DNA of 60,343 bases, taken from contig CANJQI010000006.1 of NCBI GenBank assembly GCA_947476215.1, forward strand, positions 1 to 60,343, in the 5' to 3' direction. Shown here in pieces: positions 13,474 to 26,911 of the stretch (the first letter of the stretch is position 1; each line of letters opens with the position of its first letter). The notes under the pieces are model-generated. The model saw only the letters and a list, made by a program, of their open reading frames with translations. It was not told the origin of the DNA and made no database searches. A program made the translations under genes and the position numbers. The DNA comes from Betaproteobacteria bacterium. GTDB lineage: Bacteria > Pseudomonadota > Gammaproteobacteria > Burkholderiales > SG8-41.

Positions 13474-14532
13474 ATGAATATTCAAATACAGCGATATGCC
13501 TTACTGGCGCTGACCGCAGCCGCGCTGTTCGGCGCCAGCACCCCGCTGGCGAAGTTGCTATTGCAGGGCGTATCTCCGCTAATGCTCGCCGGGCTGCTCT
13601 ATTTGGGCAGTGGTATCGGTTTGCTGATGATACGGCTGGTCAGTGGCTTGGTCACCCCGCGCAATCATGGCGAACCCGGCATACAACGCCGAGACTACCC
13701 GTGGCTCGCTGCCGCCGTTTTGCTGGGGGGCGTCTGCGCGCCCGTCCTGCTGATGTGGGGACTGAACGGATCGACTGCGGCAGGCGCCTCACTTCTCCTT
13801 AATCTTGAAGGCGTATTCACCGCATTGGTCGCCGCCGCCCTGTTCCGGGAAGCGGTGGGCCTTCGAGTCTGGCTGGCAACTTTCATCATGCTCGCCGGCG
13901 CGCTCCTGCTGTCTTACGACCCTGCGCTGGCCATGCGACTGTCGCCGCACTCGCTCGCAGTCGCGGCAGCGTGCTTGTTGTGGGCGTGCGACAACAACCT
14001 GACGCGCAAGATCTCCGCAAACGATCCCATGACCATAGCCATCGTTAAAGGAATGGTTGCAGGTGTTGTGAATATTGGGTTGGCTTGGGCGGTCGAACCG
14101 GCAACACCGGCCGCAACTGTAATCGCGGGTGCGATGCTGCTGGGACTATTCAGCTATGGCATCAGCCTCGTCATGTTTATTTACGCGCTACGCCATCTGG
14201 GAAGCGCACGAGCCAGCGCGCATTTCAGCACCGCGCCGTTCATGGGCGCCACCATTTCCATCCTGTTGCTGAATGATCCCGGGAGCATCGCGTTCGTCTT
14301 CGCCGTAATCCTAATGATATGCGCGACATGGCTGGTGTTGACCGAGCATCACCAGCATCAGCATACGCATTCCCAGATGGCCCACACTCACGGGCACAGC
14401 CACGATGAACACCATCAACACCCGCACGACGGCAGCGAAGGTGCCGAACCGCACGCTCATGCGCACACGCATTCGTCATTGACACACGCCCATCCGCATT
14501 TGCCGGACATACATCACCGGCATGAGCATTGA
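13474..14532 (+). CDS. EamA/DMT-family transporter with long His-rich C-terminal tail
   Basis: About 10 TM segments, LFGASTPLAKLL, DNNLTRKIS; roughly 60-aa HxH tail ending PDIHHRHEH. Confidence 0.88.
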   Translation: MNIQIQRYALLALTAAALFGASTPLAKLLLQGVSPLMLAGLLYLGSGIGLLMIRLVSGLVTPRNHGEPGIQRRDYPWLAAAVLLGGVCAPVLLMWGLNGSTAAGASLLLNLEGVFTALVAAALFREAVGLRVWLATFIMLAGALLLSYDPALAMRLSPHSLAVAAACLLWACDNNLTRKISANDPMTIAIVKGMVAGVVNIGLAWAVEPATPAATVIAGAMLLGLFSYGISLVMFIYALRHLGSARASAHFSTAPFMGATISILLLNDPGSIAFVFAVILMICATWLVLTEHHQHQHTHSQMAHTHGHSHDEHHQHPHDGSEGAEPHAHAHTHSSLTHAHPHLPDIHHRHEH

Positions 14533-14617: not shown

Positions 14618-15376
14618 TTATCGCCCGCGTCGTGGCGCGACCATGGCCGTCGCGACAGCAAGCGCCGTCATCACCCAGACAATTGCGGGTCCCGACGGCC
14701 AGTCGGTCCACGCGGATACGGCCAGTCCTATTGCATATCCCGCGGCGCCAACAACATAGCCGGCGGCAATACGCCAGCGCGCGAAATGGCGCGTCGCGAG
14801 CGCCGGCACAATCAACGTGGTAAACACCAGATACAGACCCACCAGTTGCACCGACACCGTGACCGCGCATGCGAACAGCAGATAGAATCCGATGCGACCA
14901 AGGCGCTCGCCCATTGCAAACCAGATCGCGAGGATCGCCGCATAAGCGAGGGCGACCCACGGCAGGCGCGCCGGACTGACCCACAGTATCTGCCCGACCA
15001 GCAGCTCTTTCAGATGTTCGGCGCCGTGCGGATTGCTGGCGAGCAGGATCAATGCGCCGCTTGCGGCGAGTATGAACGTCACGCCGATCAGCGCCTCCTG
15101 TATTTCCGGCCAGCGCTTGTCGGTCCACGTCAGCAGGAGCGCACCGGCAACCGCCGCGGTTAATGCCGACAGCTGAACCGCCCAGCCCTGCGGCTCAAAT
15201 CCCAGCCAGTCCGCACAAATCACGCCCAGGCCCGCGATCTGCGCGATGGCGAGGTCGACAAACACGATGCCGCGATTCAGCACTTGCGTGCCCAGCGGCA
15301 CATGGGTCGCGGTCACCAGCAGGCCGGCAATCAGCGCCGGCCACAGGATGCTGATGTCGAGTAACGTTGAGTTCAT
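14618..15376 (-). CDS. Metal ABC transporter permease (ABC-3, ZnuB/MntB-like)
   Basis: THVPLGTQVLNRGIVFVDLAIAQIA, LLVGQILWV, LVFTTLIVPA, PSGPAIV. Confidence 0.88.
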   Translation of the reverse strand: MNSTLLDISILWPALIAGLLVTATHVPLGTQVLNRGIVFVDLAIAQIAGLGVICADWLGFEPQGWAVQLSALTAAVAGALLLTWTDKRWPEIQEALIGVTFILAASGALILLASNPHGAEHLKELLVGQILWVSPARLPWVALAYAAILAIWFAMGERLGRIGFYLLFACAVTVSVQLVGLYLVFTTLIVPALATRHFARWRIAAGYVVGAAGYAIGLAVSAWTDWPSGPAIVWVMTALAVATAMVAPRRGR

Positions 15377-16278
15377 TTAACAATCGCCAGCAAGCGTGCA
15401 ATCGTATCGTCGAACAAGCCAAACAGGTCTTTAGCCTTTTCGGTGCCGCCGACGGTGAATGGCAGCATGACCGCCGGAATTTTGGCCTGTTCGGAAAGCC
15501 ACTCGGCGGCACGCGGTTCGTTGTAGGCTGCCCGCACCACCGCCCGGGCCGGATTTTTTTGCAGTTGCGCCAGCAGACTGCTCAATTGTGCCGAGGTCGG
15601 CGGCAATCCGGGTTTAGGTTCCAGGGTACCCAGCAAGCGCAGGCCCAGCCAGTTTTCCAGGTAAGTCAGGTTCTTGTGATAGACAACAATGGGCACGCCT
15701 CTCAGCGGTGCAGCTTCTTTTTCCCAGCGCGCGATGGCCTGCTGCCATCGATCGAGAAACGACTTGCTGCGGGCGCGGTAGCCATCGGCTTCCGCCGCAT
15801 CGAGTTGCGTCATGCGTTCGGTGAGCGCGACCACAACCCGCGCGATATTTCGCGGGTCAAGCTGAATATGCGGGTTGCCACCGGGATGCACATCACCTTG
15901 CGCGCGATCCAGTCGCTCGGGGATTTCCAGCATCGAAACATATTGTGCAGCCTCGAAGTATCCAGGCCGCCCGCGCTGAATTTTCGGATTGCCGGATTGC
16001 GATTGCAGCAGCGGCATCCATCCCACTTCAAGTTCGGCGCCGGTACACACCACCAGATCAGCGCTGCGTGCGCGCGCGATCAAACTGGGGCGCGCTTCGA
16101 TGTGATGCGGATCCTGCAAGGCGGTCGTTGCAACGTAAACGTTTATCTTGTCGCCACCGAGTTCCCTGCTCAACGCGCCCCATTCGGGTTCACACGCCAG
16201 AATATTCAAAGCGGCCCATGCCGACTGCGTTGCAAGCGTGCCCGCAGCCAGCATTGTCCATACCAAAAATGTCTTCAT
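15373..16278 (-). CDS. Metal ABC substrate-binding protein (cluster A-I, ZnuA/TroA-like)
   Basis: Signal peptide, QDPHHIEARPS, GDVHPGGNPH, YHK, LEPKPGLPP; ATG 16278 after AAGGA. Confidence 0.9.
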   Translation of the reverse strand: MKTFLVWTMLAAGTLATQSAWAALNILACEPEWGALSRELGGDKINVYVATTALQDPHHIEARPSLIARARSADLVVCTGAELEVGWMPLLQSQSGNPKIQRGRPGYFEAAQYVSMLEIPERLDRAQGDVHPGGNPHIQLDPRNIARVVVALTERMTQLDAAEADGYRARSKSFLDRWQQAIARWEKEAAPLRGVPIVVYHKNLTYLENWLGLRLLGTLEPKPGLPPTSAQLSSLLAQLQKNPARAVVRAAYNEPRAAEWLSEQAKIPAVMLPFTVGGTEKAKDLFGLFDDTIARLLAIVK

Positions 16279-16304
16279 TTTCAAGTCCTTAAGGAATAAC
16301 ACGC

Positions 16305-17747
16305 TCAGAACTTGTGCGCGCCGTGCGCGCCCAGACTGTGAATGTACTGTATGAATACCTGATTGTCGGTAGCGCCCAGCCGCGACTTGTCGGACGCGAA
16401 TTGCAGGCGCATACGGCTGAATTCGCTCGGACTCCAGTCAAGCATCAGCGTGCTGCGCGTCGGGCTGTGATTGGCCAGCACCGGGAAATCAGCCGCAGTC
16501 GGCCCAAGTCCGTTCACCACGATGCCATTGCTAACCGTTCCATAGCGCAGCGCGTCATAGCGATAACCAACCCGCCATCCCGGATAAAACTTCCACACCC
16601 CCTGTGTGTACCAGCCGGACTGGTCGGTGCGCAAATAGTCGGTGAACGTCGAACCGAACTGCGGCGCAGTTTGCGCCGTGTCGTCGTAGGTCAGGGCACC
16701 GTCTTGTTTGAGGCGGAAGTATTCGCCTTGCAGCGTGAAGCTGTTGTGCTGGGCGTTGCCGTTCGGCGCCCACTTGAGCACGCCGTTCAGGCCGAGCGCC
16801 CTGGCAGTGCCGGTAAAGGTGTTGACGACTGCACCGCCCAGCGCGTCGGTGTCCGCATGTGTACGGGCAGCGGGCGAAGCGCGCAGGTGCGAGACGCCGA
16901 GCCGCCACGCGGTACTGGCGCCGATATCGCCGCCCATATTCATGAACACGGCGCTTCCGCCTATGCCGTTCTTGTTGCGATCGCTGCCCGGAAACGTGTC
17001 ACCGGCACTGAGTTCCGCGCCCAGTTCCACCAGCAAATCAGTTGGTGCAATCCACTTGAACTGGAGGCCGTCCTGCTTCAACTTATTGCCGAAAAAGGCT
17101 TTGTAGACCAATGGCGCGTCCTGAAAATCCCATGCATGCTGGTGCTGCTCGTTCTGGTAGCCGATGCCCGAGAAAAAGCGCCCGCCTTTCAGCCCGAAAC
17201 CGAATGGCAGCGACAGCGTCTGAAAATAGGCTTCCTCCGCCTCAATCCCACCTTCGGGAGCAACAGCCAGCACCGCCAGACCGCGAAAATAGTGATCGAT
17301 GTTTGCGCTGATCGCGACTTCGGTCTCGGCCAGTCCGAAACTTCGTTTGGGTGGTCCAACTTCACCGCCTGTCGGCACAAAACCCGTGATCTGATGCTGA
17401 TTCGGATCCTGGGAAGTCTTAGCCATGGTGCCCTGCAGTATCATCGACACAGCAGGATTAAATGCGCTCTCGGAAGACGGGCGTTTACCTGCCTCGACTG
17501 CCGCGGATTGGGCAGAGTCCGCTTTCTGCTCGGCTTTGGCAGCGACAGCCTCTGTTTTGCCTGCCTTGGCTTCAGCTTCGGAAAGGCGCTTTTCCAGCGC
17601 CTGGATGCGTTTTTCGTACGCCTCCCTGATCTGTTTTACTTCGTCGCGGATTTTGGCGATATCCGCGTCCTGCGCCTGCGCCTGCGCCGCAAGCGGCGTG
17701 GTAAATACGAATGCGATCGCCATGGCGATCAATTTGCGATGGAACAC
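16305..17747 (-). CDS. Outer-membrane beta-barrel with N-terminal coiled coil (putative metal-uptake porin)
   Basis: Signal peptide, coiled coil (IREAYEKRIQALEKRL), FNPAVS, EEAYFQT, NEQHQHAWDF, PSEFSRMRLQ, C-terminal LGAHGAHKF. Confidence 0.8.
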   Translation of the reverse strand: MFHRKLIAMAIAFVFTTPLAAQAQAQDADIAKIRDEVKQIREAYEKRIQALEKRLSEAEAKAGKTEAVAAKAEQKADSAQSAAVEAGKRPSSESAFNPAVSMILQGTMAKTSQDPNQHQITGFVPTGGEVGPPKRSFGLAETEVAISANIDHYFRGLAVLAVAPEGGIEAEEAYFQTLSLPFGFGLKGGRFFSGIGYQNEQHQHAWDFQDAPLVYKAFFGNKLKQDGLQFKWIAPTDLLVELGAELSAGDTFPGSDRNKNGIGGSAVFMNMGGDIGASTAWRLGVSHLRASPAARTHADTDALGGAVVNTFTGTARALGLNGVLKWAPNGNAQHNSFTLQGEYFRLKQDGALTYDDTAQTAPQFGSTFTDYLRTDQSGWYTQGVWKFYPGWRVGYRYDALRYGTVSNGIVVNGLGPTAADFPVLANHSPTRSTLMLDWSPSEFSRMRLQFASDKSRLGATDNQVFIQYIHSLGAHGAHKF

Positions 17748-17779
17748 AAGAATTCTCCTCTGACAACAATGGGACGAAC

Positions 17780-17798
17780 CAACCGTCAGCGACGGTTG
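17780..17798 (-). promoter_or_regulatory. Stem-loop between the RGPP leader ORF and the porin RBS
   Basis: CAACCGTC-3nt-GACGGTTG perfect 8-bp stem; outer ACAAC/GTTGT pairing (17805-17809 with 17763-17767) reaches next to the GAGGAG SD at 17760-17755. Confidence 0.55.
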
Positions 17799-17812
17799 AC
17801 CAAGTTGTGGCG

Positions 17813-18142
17813 TTAGAGAAGGATAGGCGGGCCGCGCGAGGCGGGAATGACAGGGCTGGAAGGGTATTGCCGCGTGAAGTGAACAGACGTTCGTTCTGCT
17901 GCAAAAACGGCAATGAGCGGCAGGTCTGCCGCAGAATTGACTATGCCCAGTACCTGGATAAATGCAGCATGAAAATCACACAGGTCGGATTGCGGCAGCG
18001 ATTTGCCGCCGCCAGTCTGGGACGACACACCCGACAACTGGCCATGCGCATGCTGCATTTGATGCATAACCGCGCCGTGCTGCGCGATCAGCAATAGTGC
18101 AGCAAGAATGATCTGTAGGTAGCTTCGCTTCATGAGCGTCAA
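17813..18142 (-). CDS. DUF2946/CruR/CutF-like leader protein with C-terminal RGPP arrest motif
   Basis: Signal-like N-terminus, HQMQHAH, CDFH (CxxH), C-terminal [10 protein letters not shown]; 65 nt upstream of the porin; start 18142 (TTG) or 18133 (ATG). Confidence 0.78.
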
Positions 18143-18175
18143 AGAATCAGGCCCGAGGATCCAGTATGTGTGGGA

Positions 18176-18204
18176 AGATTACGCTACAAAAGCCGATTTT
18201 GCAA
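18176..18204 (-). promoter_or_regulatory. Sigma70-type promoter TTGCAA-N17-TAATCT for the leader-porin-ABC operon
   Basis: Near-consensus hexamers with exact 17-nt spacing. Confidence 0.55.
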
Positions 18205-18254
18205 AAACATGGCGGCTTCATGGGTACGTCGCACTACTCAGAGCCCATAACAAT

Positions 18255-18482
18255 ATGAAACCCCTCTTGCTGATTCTGATTCGGTACTATCAGATCTGTC
18301 TGAGCCCGTTCTTCGGCGGGCAGTGCCGCTTCTATCCGACCTGCTCCGTCTATGCCGCCGAAGCGGTTGACAGCCACGGCGCACTTAAAGGTTCGTGGCT
18401 TGCGATGCGTCGGCTGCTGCGCTGCCATCCGTGGCACCCGGGTGGAGTGGATCCCGTGCCGGAAAGAAAAGACGATCAATAG
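18255..18482 (+). CDS. yidD: Membrane protein insertion efficiency factor YidD
   Basis: [45 protein letters not shown]; ATG 18255. Confidence 0.93.
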
Positions 18483-20528: not shown

Positions 20529-21266
20529 CTACTCGGCCAAGTGCGCGACTACAAAAATAAACGCCGCTCCCAGACACGTAAGTGCGATCAGGCTAAGCGT
20601 GGTCGACGATTGATTTTGCGAGTGCGCTTCCGGCAGGATGTCGGAAGCGCCTATGTAAAGCAGAAAACCGGCAAAGAATCCCAGATACAGCATCAGCACC
20701 GGCGGTGAAACCTGGATGAATAATGTACACAATACGCCGAGCACGGGGGCAACCGCATCCAGCAACAGCATCGCAACCGCGCTGCGCGTCGTATTCTTGT
20801 GCATCAGCATGAGGCTGACGGTGTTCAGGCCGTCGCAAAAATCGTGCGCGATGACGGCTATCGCGACCACGATGCCGACCGATTCAGAGACCTGAAACCC
20901 GAGCCCTATGGCGATGCCGTCCATGAAGCTGTGGCCGGCCAGCGTAATCGCCGATAGCACGCCCACCTTGGGGTGCCGATGCGACGCGTAATCGGCCTCA
21001 TGAACGTTGTGTATCAGCACGAACTTCTCAAGGCCGTGGAACAGCAGGAAGCCCACGACCATCGCTATCATCGCGCCGGTGGCATCAAGCGACTGCGCAT
21101 GCGCCAGATGAAATATCTCCGGCAGTATGTGAAAACTCACCACGCCGAGCAGCACGCCGGCGGTAAAGCTCAATATGTAATGCAGGTGATCGCGATATCG
21201 GAGCGCGAACAAGCCGCCGACGCAGGTCGACACGAACGCCGCTATCGTCAATAAAACGGCGCTCAC
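20529..21266 (-). CDS. ZIP-family divalent metal transporter (ZupT-like)
   Basis: SFTAGVLLG, ILPE, HSFMDGIAIG, VIAHDFCDG, DILPEAH; GTG 21266 preferred start. Confidence 0.9.
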   Translation of the reverse strand: MSAVLLTIAAFVSTCVGGLFALRYRDHLHYILSFTAGVLLGVVSFHILPEIFHLAHAQSLDATGAMIAMVVGFLLFHGLEKFVLIHNVHEADYASHRHPKVGVLSAITLAGHSFMDGIAIGLGFQVSESVGIVVAIAVIAHDFCDGLNTVSLMLMHKNTTRSAVAMLLLDAVAPVLGVLCTLFIQVSPPVLMLYLGFFAGFLLYIGASDILPEAHSQNQSSTTLSLIALTCLGAAFIFVVAHLAE

Positions 21267-21291
21267 CGCGGGCACCGGCCAAAACGCTTGA

Positions 21292-22482
21292 TCACGCGCA
21301 CGCCTGCGCGATAGCAACTCGACATGTCAATCCTTTTAAGTAATCGCCTTCGGGAAACGCCAGCGCCACCGGGTGATCGGCGCCAGGACTCATATGCCCC
21401 ACAATCTGCGCATCGACCCCCGCATCCAGCGCCGCACCCGCGACTATCTTTTGGAACAGTTCGCGCGACACACCGCCGGAGCAGGAAAACGTGAATAATA
21501 AACCACCCGGACGGAGCAACTTGAACGCAAGCAGGTTGATATCCTTGTAAGCACGGGATGCTTTTTCGGCGTGCGCAACAGTGGGTGCGAATTTGGGTGG
21601 GTCAAGGACGATCAAATCAAATTTGCGCGCCTGGTCGCGCAATTTGCGCAACATCTGGAAAACGTCGCCTTCCAGGCATTCGGGCTGCGCAAGTTCATTA
21701 TGCGCCACGTTGCGCTTCAACAGTTCGAGCGCCGGGCCGGAACTGTCCATCGCGGTGACCGTGGCCGCGCCGCCGGCAAGCGCCGACACGCTGAAACCGC
21801 CCGTGTAGCAGAAACAATCAAGCACTTCGCAGTTTGCCGCGAGCGCGCGCACTGCCGATCGGTTGGCACGCTGATCGAGATAGAAACCGGTCTTGTGTCC
21901 GCCATCGACGTCGACTTCAAATTTCAGCCCTGATTCATCGACAATCAAGGGCGCGGGCGGCGGGAAACCGCGCAGCAAGCCCGTAACCGGCTTTAATCCT
22001 TCGCGCGTGAGCACGTCGGAATCGGAGCGTTCAAAGATCGTCGCCGGCCGCGCCAGTTCAAACAAGGCGTCCGCAATCGTTTCGCGCCAGTACATCGCAC
22101 CGGCGCTCGATAGTTGCAACACCACAACATCCCCGTAGCGGTCTGCAACGACACCCGGCAAGCCGTCCGATTCGGCGTGCAACAACCTCATGGCCGGACA
22201 GTCCGGCAACAGGCGCGCGCGCAGAGCGAGCGCGGCAGCTATCCGCTCGCGGAAAAACGCTGCGTCGATGTCCCGCCGCCGCCAGTCCCACACGCGCGCG
22301 AGAATTTGCGACTGCGGGCTGTACGCGGCAAGCGCCAGAAACTCACCGTCACTGCTGTGTACCTCCAGCGTTTCGCCGCTGGCGGGCGTGCCGGATATTC
22401 TGGAAACCGCGCCTGAAAACACCCATGGGTGGCGACGCTTCAGCGATTTCTCGCGACCGGGATTAAGGATGAGTTTATTCAT
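21292..22482 (-). CDS. rlmI: 23S rRNA m5C1962 methyltransferase RlmI
   Basis: GREKSLKRRHPWVFSG PUA, HAESDGLPG, GHKTGFYLDQR, LDPPKF, FSCSG, FPEGDYLK. Confidence 0.92.
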   Translation of the reverse strand: MNKLILNPGREKSLKRRHPWVFSGAVSRISGTPASGETLEVHSSDGEFLALAAYSPQSQILARVWDWRRRDIDAAFFRERIAAALALRARLLPDCPAMRLLHAESDGLPGVVADRYGDVVVLQLSSAGAMYWRETIADALFELARPATIFERSDSDVLTREGLKPVTGLLRGFPPPAPLIVDESGLKFEVDVDGGHKTGFYLDQRANRSAVRALAANCEVLDCFCYTGGFSVSALAGGAATVTAMDSSGPALELLKRNVAHNELAQPECLEGDVFQMLRKLRDQARKFDLIVLDPPKFAPTVAHAEKASRAYKDINLLAFKLLRPGGLLFTFSCSGGVSRELFQKIVAGAALDAGVDAQIVGHMSPGADHPVALAFPEGDYLKGLTCRVAIAQACA

Positions 22483-26380: not shown

Positions 26381-26911
26381 TTATCCGATCTGTTTCACCA
26401 TGATGTAATCGTCCATGACAAAACCATCGCCGATATCCTTAACGACAGCGTCGACAGTGCGAAAACCATATTTTTCATACGCGGCAATCGCCCCATGGTT
26501 TTTCTTGTTTACTGCAAGGGTAAGCCGGCGGCTACTGTTCCGACGGGCGACCGTTTCCACCCTCGTGAGCATCAGTCGGCCATAGCCTTTACGCTGTTGC
26601 TCGTGATGTATATATAGCTTGTCGAGCTTCATTCCCGCAGCGCCCGCGTTCAGGAAATACGAGGCAAATCCCCGCATACAGCCCGCAATCAGCAGCTGAT
26701 CCCACCATAAGTCGTTGCGCATCAGCTCCGCGCACAATACGTCCGGACTATAACGTTGCGCGAGCATGTAGTCTATCTGCGCCGTTCCGATAATGTCCGC
26801 GTAGTGGCGATGCCAGATCTCGGAAGCGAGAGTACGCATCTCGTCGATGTCGTCCATCCCCACTGAGGAGATCTTCGGTACGTCGCTTGCGACCTCTTTA
26901 CTATTCACCAC
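26381..26911 (-). CDS. GNAT-family N-acetyltransferase
   Basis: KLDKLYI, QQRKGYG acetyl-CoA motif, [25 protein letters not shown]. Confidence 0.9.

Follow-up and report, generated by a model that had tools for sequence, protein, structure and literature searches.

We analysed a stretch of 60,343 nucleotides (nt) from a Betaproteobacteria bacterium of the order Burkholderiales (contig CANJQI010000006.1), here called the window, and focused on a short open reading frame (ORF) at the head of a metal-uptake operon. This ORF, which we call the leader, is the first of four genes and is followed by genes for an outer-membrane porin-like protein, a ZnuA-family substrate-binding protein (SBP) and a metal permease of the ATP-binding cassette (ABC) type. 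The leader, an intergenic hairpin and the porin operon all lie on the minus strand of the window, and their coordinates are collected in Table 1. We favour as probable the reading that the leader is a cis-acting member of a distant, zinc-context branch of the DUF2946 proteins, and that ribosome arrest near its C-terminus would control translation of the porin, SBP and permease genes.

Table 1. Features of the leader and the porin operon in the window, listed in the direction of transcription (SD, Shine-Dalgarno; aa, amino acids)
Feature	Position	Strand	Basis or remark
Putative promoter, TTGCAA (18204-18199), 17 nt, TAATCT (18181-18176)	18176..18204	minus	conserved pattern
Leader ORF (upstream ORF), 106 aa + stop	17813..18133	minus	ATG at 18133
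Hydrophobic N-terminal segment, residues 5-23, putative signal peptide or N-in/C-out anchor	18065..18121	minus	sequence reading
His pair H24 + H28 (HQMQH), candidate metal ligands	18050..18064	minus	invariant in 20/20 genus sequences
CDFH, C52 + H55, candidate metal ligands, 44 residues before RGPP	17969..17980	minus	conservation
RGPP, putative arrest motif (CGC GGC CCG CCT)	17825..17836	minus	invariant in 20/20 genus sequences
Anti-SD, CUU CUC + U of UAA	17815..17821	minus	pairs with porin SD
GC-rich conserved hairpin, enclosed by anti-SD:SD helix	17778..17800	minus	RNAalifold, 20 loci
Porin Shine-Dalgarno region, A+GAGGAG (GAGGAG 17760-17755)	17755..17761	minus	7 nt before GTG at 17747
Outer-membrane porin-like protein, 480 aa	16305..17747	minus	GTG start at 17747
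ZnuA-family substrate-binding protein	15373..16302	minus	PF01297, E 1.7e-38
ABC-3 family metal permease (ZnuB/AztB-like)	14618..15376	minus	PF00950, E 1.2e-20

Residue numbers refer to the 106-aa form of the leader, which begins at the ATG. A TTG at 18142 is an alternative start that yields 109 aa (17813..18142), and the TAA stop codon occupies 17815-17813. At the N-terminus, 18 mostly hydrophobic residues come after K2 and R3 and extend to about residue 23. Histidines stand at positions 19, 24, 28 and 30, the last three within HQMQHAH (H24..H30), and a Gln/Gly/Ser-rich linker connects this His cluster to CDFH. From there a moderately hydrophobic stretch leads to the C-terminus, V-I-P-A-S-R100-G-P-P103-I-L-L-stop, so that RGPP ends exactly three residues before the stop. 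An initial annotation of this DNA, made from the sequence alone, had described an ORF of 106–109 aa with a signal-like N-terminus, HQMQHAH, CDFH and RGPP three residues before the stop; this description was borne out on the minus strand and in all 20 related loci described below.

Of 28 other genomes in the genus, 25 contain a stop-free, full-length homologue of the leader (E ≤ 7e-14). In the 20 genus loci that were fetched the reading frame was kept throughout, with lengths of 106–111 aa (107–108 aa in 18 of the 20), RGPP was always followed by three residues and the stop, and the homologue of the window's porin always came directly after the leader. The leaders of these loci are 41–51% identical to that of the window. 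H24, H28, C52, F54, H55, E80 and R-G-P-P are nevertheless invariant across all 20, the cysteine motif is CxxH in every one (CDFH in the window), and the stretch from H55 to R100 is free of indels, while the Gln-rich middle of the protein is poorly conserved. In a genus-level scan of 30 loci, leader identity was 35–53% as against 45–86% for porin, SBP and permease. The few fixed positions amid a drifting background make the leader look regulatory. The Gly and Pro codons of RGPP show synonymous third-base variation among the genus loci, and in other genera the Arg codon of RxPP is CGC, CGT, AGA or AGG. Since the residues stay fixed while their codons vary, selection on RxPP acts on the peptide and not on the RNA. 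The conservation is far beyond chance, and the leader is a real gene.

The leader and the porin gene are separated by 65 nt in the window and by 62–75 nt in the 20 genus loci. RNAalifold on these 20 loci folded the region into a GC-rich hairpin with the stem GUCAACCGU(C) / (G)ACGGUUGGU, enclosed by an outer helix in which CUUCUCU (17821-17815) pairs with AGAGGAG (17761-17755). The SD of the porin gene is thus itself the 3′ arm of the outer helix, and in the consensus structure leader columns 76–80 are paired with it. The hairpin shows changes on both sides in 8 of its 9 pairs, with 97.2% of cells paired, and the outer anti-SD:SD helix has 87.8% of cells paired. When the partners were slid by 1–3 columns, 40.7–67.2% of cells were paired for the whole structure, compared with 93.1% observed. 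The stem-loop of the initial annotation is therefore real and covaries, but its outer arm does not abut the SD, as had been stated: the 3′ arm of the hairpin stops 16 nt before the SD, which belongs to the outer helix instead. Codon choice gives independent evidence for the outer helix: at the last two leader positions 36 of 37 Leu codons are CUC or CUU. The CUY share is 28% among the 301 other Leu codons of these ORFs and 27% among 388 in ten genes of the window, where CUG dominates. Because the related sequences are not independent, this codon bias overstates the case.

We also computed partition-function folds for the 20 genus loci. The probability that the SD is unpaired was 0.00–0.26 in free RNA in all 20 (0.01 in the window) and 0.05–0.70 (0.33 in the window) when the footprint of a stalled ribosome was masked, defined as -12 to +15 nt around the codon in the peptidyl (P) site. 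The stronger test comes from other genera, where 19 of 22 porin-linked loci retain pairing of the SD with the footprint region. In 17 of 20 other-genera loci the minimum free energy structure has 8–16 pairs that run from the SD region to 2–9 nt downstream of the first base of the P-site codon, and in L102 and L118 the footprint covers most partners of the SD (shares 0.86 and 1.00). The arms of the helix differ in sequence while their complementarity is kept, as in GCCUCGUCUGA / UCACGAGGU, UUCCUCUGAAC / GUUCGGAGGAA and GUUCUCGGCUGA / UCAGACGAGGAU; further complementary pairs from other genera are UCUCGCUUAAGC / GCUUAAGCGAGG and UUCCCUUUCUGAAA / UUUUUUAAGGGAA. The translational switch that had been proposed at the outset is supported by this conserved anti-SD:SD helix, which is predicted to lie under the footprint of an RGPP-stalled ribosome. 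An Rfam search of 17500-18400 at E ≤ 1 returned no match to a riboswitch or other known RNA.

To place the leader among known families, we compared it with DUF2946 (PF11162). Scans against Pfam (E ≤ 0.1) and NCBIfam gave no family match. The hidden Markov model comparison suggested in the initial annotation did not confirm membership: the leader scored 11.6 bits (E 0.5) on PF11162, below the cut-off of 23.7 bits. The alignment is nearly end to end, with leader residues 13–106 set against profile positions 10–117 of 117. In a word-indexed protein search the leader retrieved two relatives, and a canonical DUF2946 query retrieved the query alone. When 1.84 billion proteins were searched with a profile built from 20 leader sequences, 459 cluster representatives matched at E ≤ 1e-3. 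The family figures given here cover the best 150 of these 459 matches together with one relative from the word search, 151 proteins in all. RxPP takes the form RGPP in 124 of them, RAPP in 9 and RSPP in 3, and the remaining 15 have none of these (some have RDPP). RGPP stands exactly three residues from the end in 107 of the 151, and CxxH is present in 94, with C-x-F-D in many others. Of the 98 proteins in which the spacing between Cys motif and RxPP could be scored, 88 have 44 residues. All 150 family members have C52, and position 55 is H, C or D depending on the subfamily; an alignment of 123 members shows H24 without exception and H28 in at least 90%.

As a reference for canonical DUF2946 we used 27 proteins from genomes of the order, which carry CxxC, then 43–46 residues, RAPP and mostly three residues to the end. 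Comparison of the 150-member family profile with these 27 by hhalign gave a probability of 80.3% and an E-value of 1.4e-5 over 107 columns, in a register that sets C52 on the first Cys of CxxC and SRGPP on pRAPP. A genus-only profile of 20 sequences, which is shallow, reached 36% and aligned at the N-terminus only. Among the 150 family members 12 matched PF11162 at E ≤ 0.01, and the porin-linked members of CxxC type scored 17.8–24.1 bits on it, one of five above the cut-off. One CxxC-type leader is labelled ‘DUF2946 domain-containing protein’ in its UniRef entry. A PF11162 search across the class matched 1 of 121 genomes. The export signal or N-in/C-out anchor of DUF2946 proteins may have a counterpart in the hydrophobic, signal-like N-terminus of the leader, seen both in its sequence and as helix 2–35 of an AlphaFold2 (AF2) model. 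In this model, built from 123 sequences, helices 2–35 and 50–68 each carry one ligand pair; the mean predicted local distance difference test score (pLDDT) is 74.4 overall and 84–93 in helix 2–35. From these comparisons we read the window's leader as belonging to the DUF2946 superfamily on a distant branch, one that does not formally qualify for the Pfam family. The initial annotation had likened it to CruR (Bp2923), the copper-sensing DUF2946 leader of Bordetella pertussis described in mBio in 2022 (PMC9426467). The hhalign result and the spacing of 44 residues, as compared with 45 in CruR, favour that likeness in kind, but the relation is distant and stays below the Pfam cut-off.

To assess how widespread these leaders are, we sampled 301 genomes of the order. 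At E ≤ 1e-6 the family profile matched 105 of them, which represent 58 of 143 genera and include two flagged unpublished, compared with 83 of the same 301 for canonical PF11162. The Pfam model misses most members of the subfamily, and surveys that rely on it will under-count these leaders. Genomic context was covered for 124 loci (sets of 20, 30, 28, 18, 8 and 20 of the genus, partly overlapping). The other-genera set comprises 28 loci, excluding one from an unpublished genome, and in all 28 the leader has HxxxH and ends three residues after RxPP. The Cys motif is CxxC in 23 of them. In 22 of these the leader, with CxxC (mostly CDKC) and RAPP or RGPP, is followed by a homologue of the window's porin (45–54% identity), and in one (L113) by another receptor; in most sister genera the motif is RAPP rather than RGPP. 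The presence of CxxC at the same position before the same porin in these 22 of 28 loci agrees with the earlier description of the window's leader as a His-substituted variant. The complete module of leader, porin, SBP and permease was recovered from seven further genera in larger fetches. A scan with a CxLH-type profile (13-member alignment) added eight loci. Six of these have the porin, four of them with SBP and permease and two on contigs that end within porin or SBP; of the other two, one has a receptor and one matched no query gene. In the genus-level scan of 30 loci the porin module occurred in 26 and a receptor in four.

Four of the 28 other-genera loci have a CxxD leader followed by a TonB-dependent receptor, and in two the leader precedes other receptors. 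For the receptors that follow CxxD leaders, ZnuD is the best NCBIfam match (E 6e-93 and 7e-95, 313–319 bits), and a copper-receptor model gives 48 and 40 bits, all of these matches lying below the curated cut-offs. In L081 (5001-9382), L136, L091-L093 and L114, leaders of the CAFD type stand ahead of ZnuD-like receptors of the TonB-dependent kind and of a TonB gene. In L081 a canonical DUF2946 ORF (27 bits) and a PCuAC gene form a pair directly after the CxxD-type cluster, which puts two different arrest-type leaders in one cluster.

The porin-like protein behind the window's leader has a signal peptide, a coiled coil of about 50 residues at the N-terminus, a barrel and the C-terminal end ...GAHGAHKF. 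It matched no Pfam or NCBIfam family; one homologue matches BBP2 (PF07642) weakly (E 7.8e-5), and homologues are named ‘hypothetical protein’ in their sources. This porin is widespread in the order and is always preceded by a leader of the same family. The best NCBIfam match of the SBP is AztC (E 4.6e-23, below cut-off), with weaker matches to Mn-type models, and source names of the SBP and permease homologues are ‘zinc ABC transporter substrate-binding protein’ and ‘metal ABC transporter permease’. No ABC ATPase gene was found in the window's operon or in seven full sister loci (L119, L123, L124, L128, L129, L130 and L133). L126 alone carries one, between SBP and permease, and the best matches to that ATPase in the window's own genome are generic (36% and 32% identity; frames of 543 and 641 aa), so that no cognate ATPase was recognised there.

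The surroundings of the operon look metal-related. The gene after the permease is convergent and encodes an EamA transporter (13474-14532, plus strand) with a long His-rich C-terminal tail (HHQHQHTHSQMAHTHGHSHDEHHQHPHD...). A ZIP-family transporter gene (20529-21317, minus strand; PF02535, E 3.4e-23) lies 2.4 kb away on the upstream side, and in other loci a CDF zinc-type exporter adjoins the operon. Upstream of the leader and divergent from it is yidD, for a membrane-protein insertion efficiency factor (18258-18482, plus strand; PF01809), a position that is kept in 28 of 30 related loci. A search for the Zur box TGTTAT-N5-ATAACA with at most two mismatches gave one match in the window, at 26404, which is chance level; the pattern is derived from Caulobacter and is possibly unsuited to this lineage. 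Visual inspection of the 20 genus upstream regions revealed no conserved palindrome.

The evidence for a promoter of the leader is of two kinds. A consensus sigma-70 scan of 17600-18400 reported no sites, and the putative hexamers match 7 of 12 consensus positions. The pattern TTGC[AC]N, 16–18 nt, T[AT]NNNT is found 30–42 nt before the start in 18 of 20 genus loci. Conservation thus supports a leader promoter and the score does not, and of the sigma-70 promoter proposed earlier the conserved pattern is what stands.

We propose that these elements act together as follows. The leader would be transcribed from its own conserved promoter and then translated, and the ribosome would stall at R100-G-P-P103 with the P site occupied by the Pro102 codon CCG (17830-17828) and the aminoacyl (A) site by CCT, by analogy with the CruR toeprint. 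The mRNA channel of the stalled ribosome is expected to cover about 15 nt downstream, to about 17815, which is the anti-SD arm. The covered stretch would comprise the last two codons and the stop, including the CUUCUCU 5′ arm that sequesters the porin SD (AGAGGAG), the two arms being clamped together by the intervening hairpin. A need to keep the anti-SD within the channel would give a reason for the invariant three-codon tail. During the stall the helix would melt and the SD would be free, so that the porin, and probably the whole operon, could be translated.

The release of the stall would depend on a metal. H24/H28 on one helix and C52/H55 on a second would bind it, most likely Zn(II), and the nascent chain would fold outside the tunnel. 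The ribosome exit tunnel holds 30–40 residues. A spacing of 44 residues would put C52/H55 just outside the tunnel at arrest, able to close a site with H24/H28. Folding could then pull the arrest motif out, after which termination would follow, the helix would re-form, the SD would close and uptake would be switched off. As the operon serves uptake, we infer that metal releases the stall rather than strengthens it, which is the useful sign and the one proposed for CruR.

The proposed mechanism can be compared with several known systems. As described in the main text of its report, CruR has a CxxC-RAPP spacing of 45, conserved to within 1–2 residues, with RAPP lying three residues short of the C-terminus, and it acts over a 162-nt intergenic region by Rho-dependent termination (PMC9426467). 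In toeprints of its arrest the P and A sites are occupied by two Pro codons, and in the same study RGPP was the most robust arrest motif in four peptide contexts and refractory to elongation factor P (EF-P) (PMC12992588). The window's leader resembles CruR in being the first gene of a metal-uptake operon, in its predicted export, in a CxxX motif 44–45 residues before RxPP, in an RxPP exactly three residues before the stop and in the expected logic of a stall relieved by metal. It differs in having CDFH for CxxC, RGPP for RAPP and two extra invariant His residues after the signal segment, and in combining a 65-nt intergenic region with an SD-sequestering helix, where CruR has 162 nt and Rho-dependent termination. 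The genes served are porin and ZnuA-like ABC genes in the window and a TonB receptor and PepSY_TM for CruR; the metal is probably zinc in the first case and copper in the second.

CutF of Rhodobacter capsulatus is closer in its output, as its stalled ribosome is reported to melt an mRNA structure that shields an SD (mBio 2023, PMC9973294; bioRxiv 2025, 10.1101/2025.02.05.636593). Like the leader proposed here, it is a DUF2946-type secreted leader in which a Pro-rich stall at the C-terminus unmasks the SD of the next gene. CutF carries CxxxC and PPP and its stall is EF-P-sensitive, whereas the window's leader has CDFH and RGPP and no PPP. In the window the anti-SD lies within the leader's own last codons. 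CutF controls a detoxifying oxidase and metal strengthens its stall; since the window's operon serves uptake, the opposite sign is expected.

The RAPP/RGPP peptides ApdA, ApdP and ApcA and seven from Streptomyces lividans are likewise small secretory or membrane proteins with the motif near the C-terminus, encoded upstream of a target gene. In the main text of the EMBO J 2025 survey, small secretory ORFs with RAPP/RGPP are enriched before genes for TonB receptors, YcnI, PCuAC, PepSY and thioredoxin-like proteins, so that metal homeostasis is among the downstream classes, as in the window (PMC12992588). The named peptides of this group differ from the window's leader in preceding Sec/YidC genes or members of those same classes (PMC12992588). 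Zur-repressed znuABC/znuD systems share with the window's operon a ZnuA-family SBP and a ZnuB-like permease, and with its sister loci ZnuD-like receptors. The window differs in having no Zur-box-like palindrome that we could find (a weak test), no ATPase gene in the cluster, and porin and leader genes in first position. In Escherichia coli, SecM stalls near the C-terminus of an exported leader and thereby exposes the SD of downstream secA, and pulling force releases it. Its output logic is alike, with no sequence relationship to the window's leader beyond R-x-x-P, and SecM senses export, not metal. The interpretation given in the initial annotation is partly supported: it is right in kind, with a putative arrest leader of the CruR/CutF class that would act on the porin operon, and plausibly so in naming a metal other than copper.

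A more specific proposal is that the family is the first group of zinc-sensing arrest peptides, in which a His-His-Cys-(Cys/His/Asp) site closes on Zn(II) just beyond the exit tunnel, frees the RGPP/RAPP stall and lets the SD be sequestered again. We offer this tentatively, and the balance of probability is against it. At the same tentative level, the CxxD forms would regulate genes for ZnuD-like receptors, porin SDs being those that were analysed.

Several observations weigh against the reading we favour. The case for an arrest leader is built from sequence, RNA structure and gene context, and arrest, metal binding and regulation are putative. In the genus the anti-SD:SD core barely covaries, with one of seven pairs changed on both sides, because both arms are constrained. 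In L013 and L016 the SD pairs elsewhere, and three of the 22 porin-linked loci of other genera (L097, L099 and L107) are without the helix, given gene starts as defined here. Among 11 other genes of the window with an SD-like site, three also had a probability of at most 0.05 of an unpaired SD. With these controls equally closed, we rejected single-sequence SD accessibility as evidence, and the weight therefore rests on conservation of the helix across lineages. A T-rich tract (at least 6 T in 10 nt) follows the hairpin in 9 of 20 genus loci and 10 of 20 other-genera loci; with such tracts in about half of the loci, transcription attenuation may contribute, with the opposite dependence on stalling. 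The predicted template modelling score (pTM) of the AF2 leader model is only 0.37, and the model yields secondary structure and confidence only; a metal site is not claimed from it. Metal relieves the stall of CruR and strengthens that of CutF, which leaves the direction ambiguous. The operon lacks an ATPase gene, so that its transport function is incompletely understood. As for the metal, the copper-type CxxC that CruR has is also found in most sister genera, and the NCBIfam matches of the SBP are all far below their cut-offs, which makes its metal specificity unreadable.

Zinc as the sensed metal is close to an even call for us, tilted slightly in its favour; another metal is considerably less probable, and the remainder falls to no metal being sensed. 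Zinc is favoured by the context of a ZnuA/AztC-like SBP, an ABC-3 permease and ZIP and CDF neighbours, and by the ZnuD-like receptors behind CxxD relatives. The fourth candidate ligand varies between Cys, His and Asp. Such variation suits Zn(II) better than Cu(I), for which Asp or His in place of the second Cys is unusual on general chemical grounds. Of the three metals named in the initial annotation, Zn, Ni or Co, zinc is thus the one favoured by gene context, while Ni and Co found no support here.

The alternative that survives best keeps the proposed mechanism but takes copper, or else Ni, Co, Mn or Fe, as the metal sensed, in which case the porin-SBP-permease module would import that metal. 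We consider this unlikely, though well within reach. Both characterised relatives, CruR and CutF, sense copper, and the CxxC type precedes the same porin in the 22 other-genera loci described above. The pair of canonical DUF2946 and PCuAC in the cluster of L081 and the label ‘copper-binding protein CopC’, which one source gives to a cluster member, point the same way. Mn gains from the weak matches of the SBP to Mn-type models, and Ni or Co from the His-only CutF-like clusters linked to these metals in the main text of the CutF report (PMC9973294). Against this alternative stand the zinc-type AztC as best NCBIfam match of the SBP and the zinc SBP names of its homologues. The receptors behind CxxD relatives score 313–319 bits for ZnuD and 40–48 bits for the copper-receptor model, and the neighbour of the operon is a ZIP transporter here and a CDF zinc-type exporter in other loci.

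A second alternative keeps the leader and its arrest and makes the output transcriptional, as in CruR: the stall would block Rho or alter the hairpin and its U-tract, and metal would control termination. CruR itself acts in this way (PMC9426467). The hairpin is GC-rich and is followed by the T-rich tracts noted above, with runs of T7–T9 in some loci (L104, L110 and L112), and a terminator scan reports terminator-like sites in the leader-porin region. The window's own tail after the hairpin has 3 T in 10 nt, and the intergenic region of 62–75 nt, compared with 162 nt in CruR, leaves little room for a rut site. The hairpin also starts about 30 nt past the P-site codon, outside the footprint, where stalling could not stop its formation, and what is conserved across genera is the anti-SD:SD helix and not the U-tract. 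With T content after the stem so inconsistent, the hairpin was rejected as an intrinsic terminator and is kept only as part of this alternative, to which we give a somewhat smaller chance than to the last. That the arrest monitors export as in SecM, or that the protein is a working partner of the transporter in periplasm or membrane, for example a metallochaperone, with RGPP secondary, is improbable: the signal-like hydrophobic N-terminus, the divergent yidD in 28 of 30 loci and the first discovery of RAPP/RGPP peptides before Sec and YidC genes (PMC12992588) would fit, but the downstream genes are for metal uptake and not export machinery, yidD lies upstream on the other strand, four candidate ligands stand at a fixed distance from the arrest motif, the poorly conserved Gln-rich middle and the lower identity of the leader than of the operon proteins fit a leader better than a folded partner, and CruR and CutF are reported as undetectable as stable proteins (PMC9426467, PMC9973294).

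Returning to translational control by a metal-responsive arrest leader, we examined how far it extends what has been described. The words ‘zinc’, ‘ZnuA’ and ‘porin’ are absent from the main texts of the CruR and CutF reports (PMC9426467, PMC9973294), whose supplements may list such loci, and ‘zinc’ and ‘ZnuA’ from the main text of the EMBO J survey (PMC12992588), whose figure data may list such leaders. A zinc-responsive RAPP/RGPP or DUF2946 leader before genes of the ZnuA/ZnuD type was not found in our literature searches, although supplementary lists may hold the subfamily. A table of the Caulobacter Zur regulon places a DUF2946 protein before czrCBA (PMC4176598). His-only CutF-like clusters that precede HupE/UreJ genes were already proposed to sense Ni or Co in the main text of the CutF report (PMC9973294), and the extension of this mechanism beyond copper, as put forward in the initial annotation, is accordingly new in part.

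Metal-sensing arrest leaders are known only for copper, in CruR and CutF, and Gram-negative zinc uptake is otherwise explained through Zur. If the proposal is true, zinc uptake over both membranes would be set co-translationally, with or without Zur. A zinc-sensing leader would mean that a nascent-chain sensor has been retuned between metals by a swap of one ligand (Cys, His or Asp), would offer a natural system for metal-driven co-translational folding as a force generator, and would give a role to an unnamed, widespread porin and its ATPase-less ABC-type module. The subfamily is large and mostly unannotated, and it has an anti-SD built into the last codons of the leader.

DUF2946-like ORFs also occur at other places in the genomes concerned. 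The window's own genome holds one of 123 aa at C50:29643-29933 (L021 1453-1824, minus strand), which scores 19.4 bits on PF11162, below the cut-off. It has a signal-like N-terminus, CVLC and, five residues before the stop, SCGPP instead of RAPP, which may be a degenerate or variant arrest motif. In two other genera, canonical DUF2946 ORFs (L120 3183-4007, minus strand, 29.4 bits; L129 4804-5244, plus strand) lie on the same strand as the porin-linked leader, about 3–4.5 kb downstream of it and before further outer-membrane-like genes.

Finally, we looked for the locus in public RNA and DNA libraries. Contigs from three lake or fresh-water metatranscriptome libraries match stretches of the leader and its intergenic hairpin between window positions 17775 and 18149: X20 spans 17775-17953, X19 spans 17835-17985 and 17999-18149, and X18 matches at 92–95% likeness. 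These are short contigs that show no transcript ends, and DNA carry-over is possible. No RNA contig fell on the porin gene body, an absence that carries no weight. One metatranscriptome contig has a synonymous CCT-to-CCC change in the Pro103 codon (plus-strand A>G at 17825). Most of the stretch is also represented in lake and fresh-water DNA runs of several studies, 17 of which contain at least half of the sampled words.

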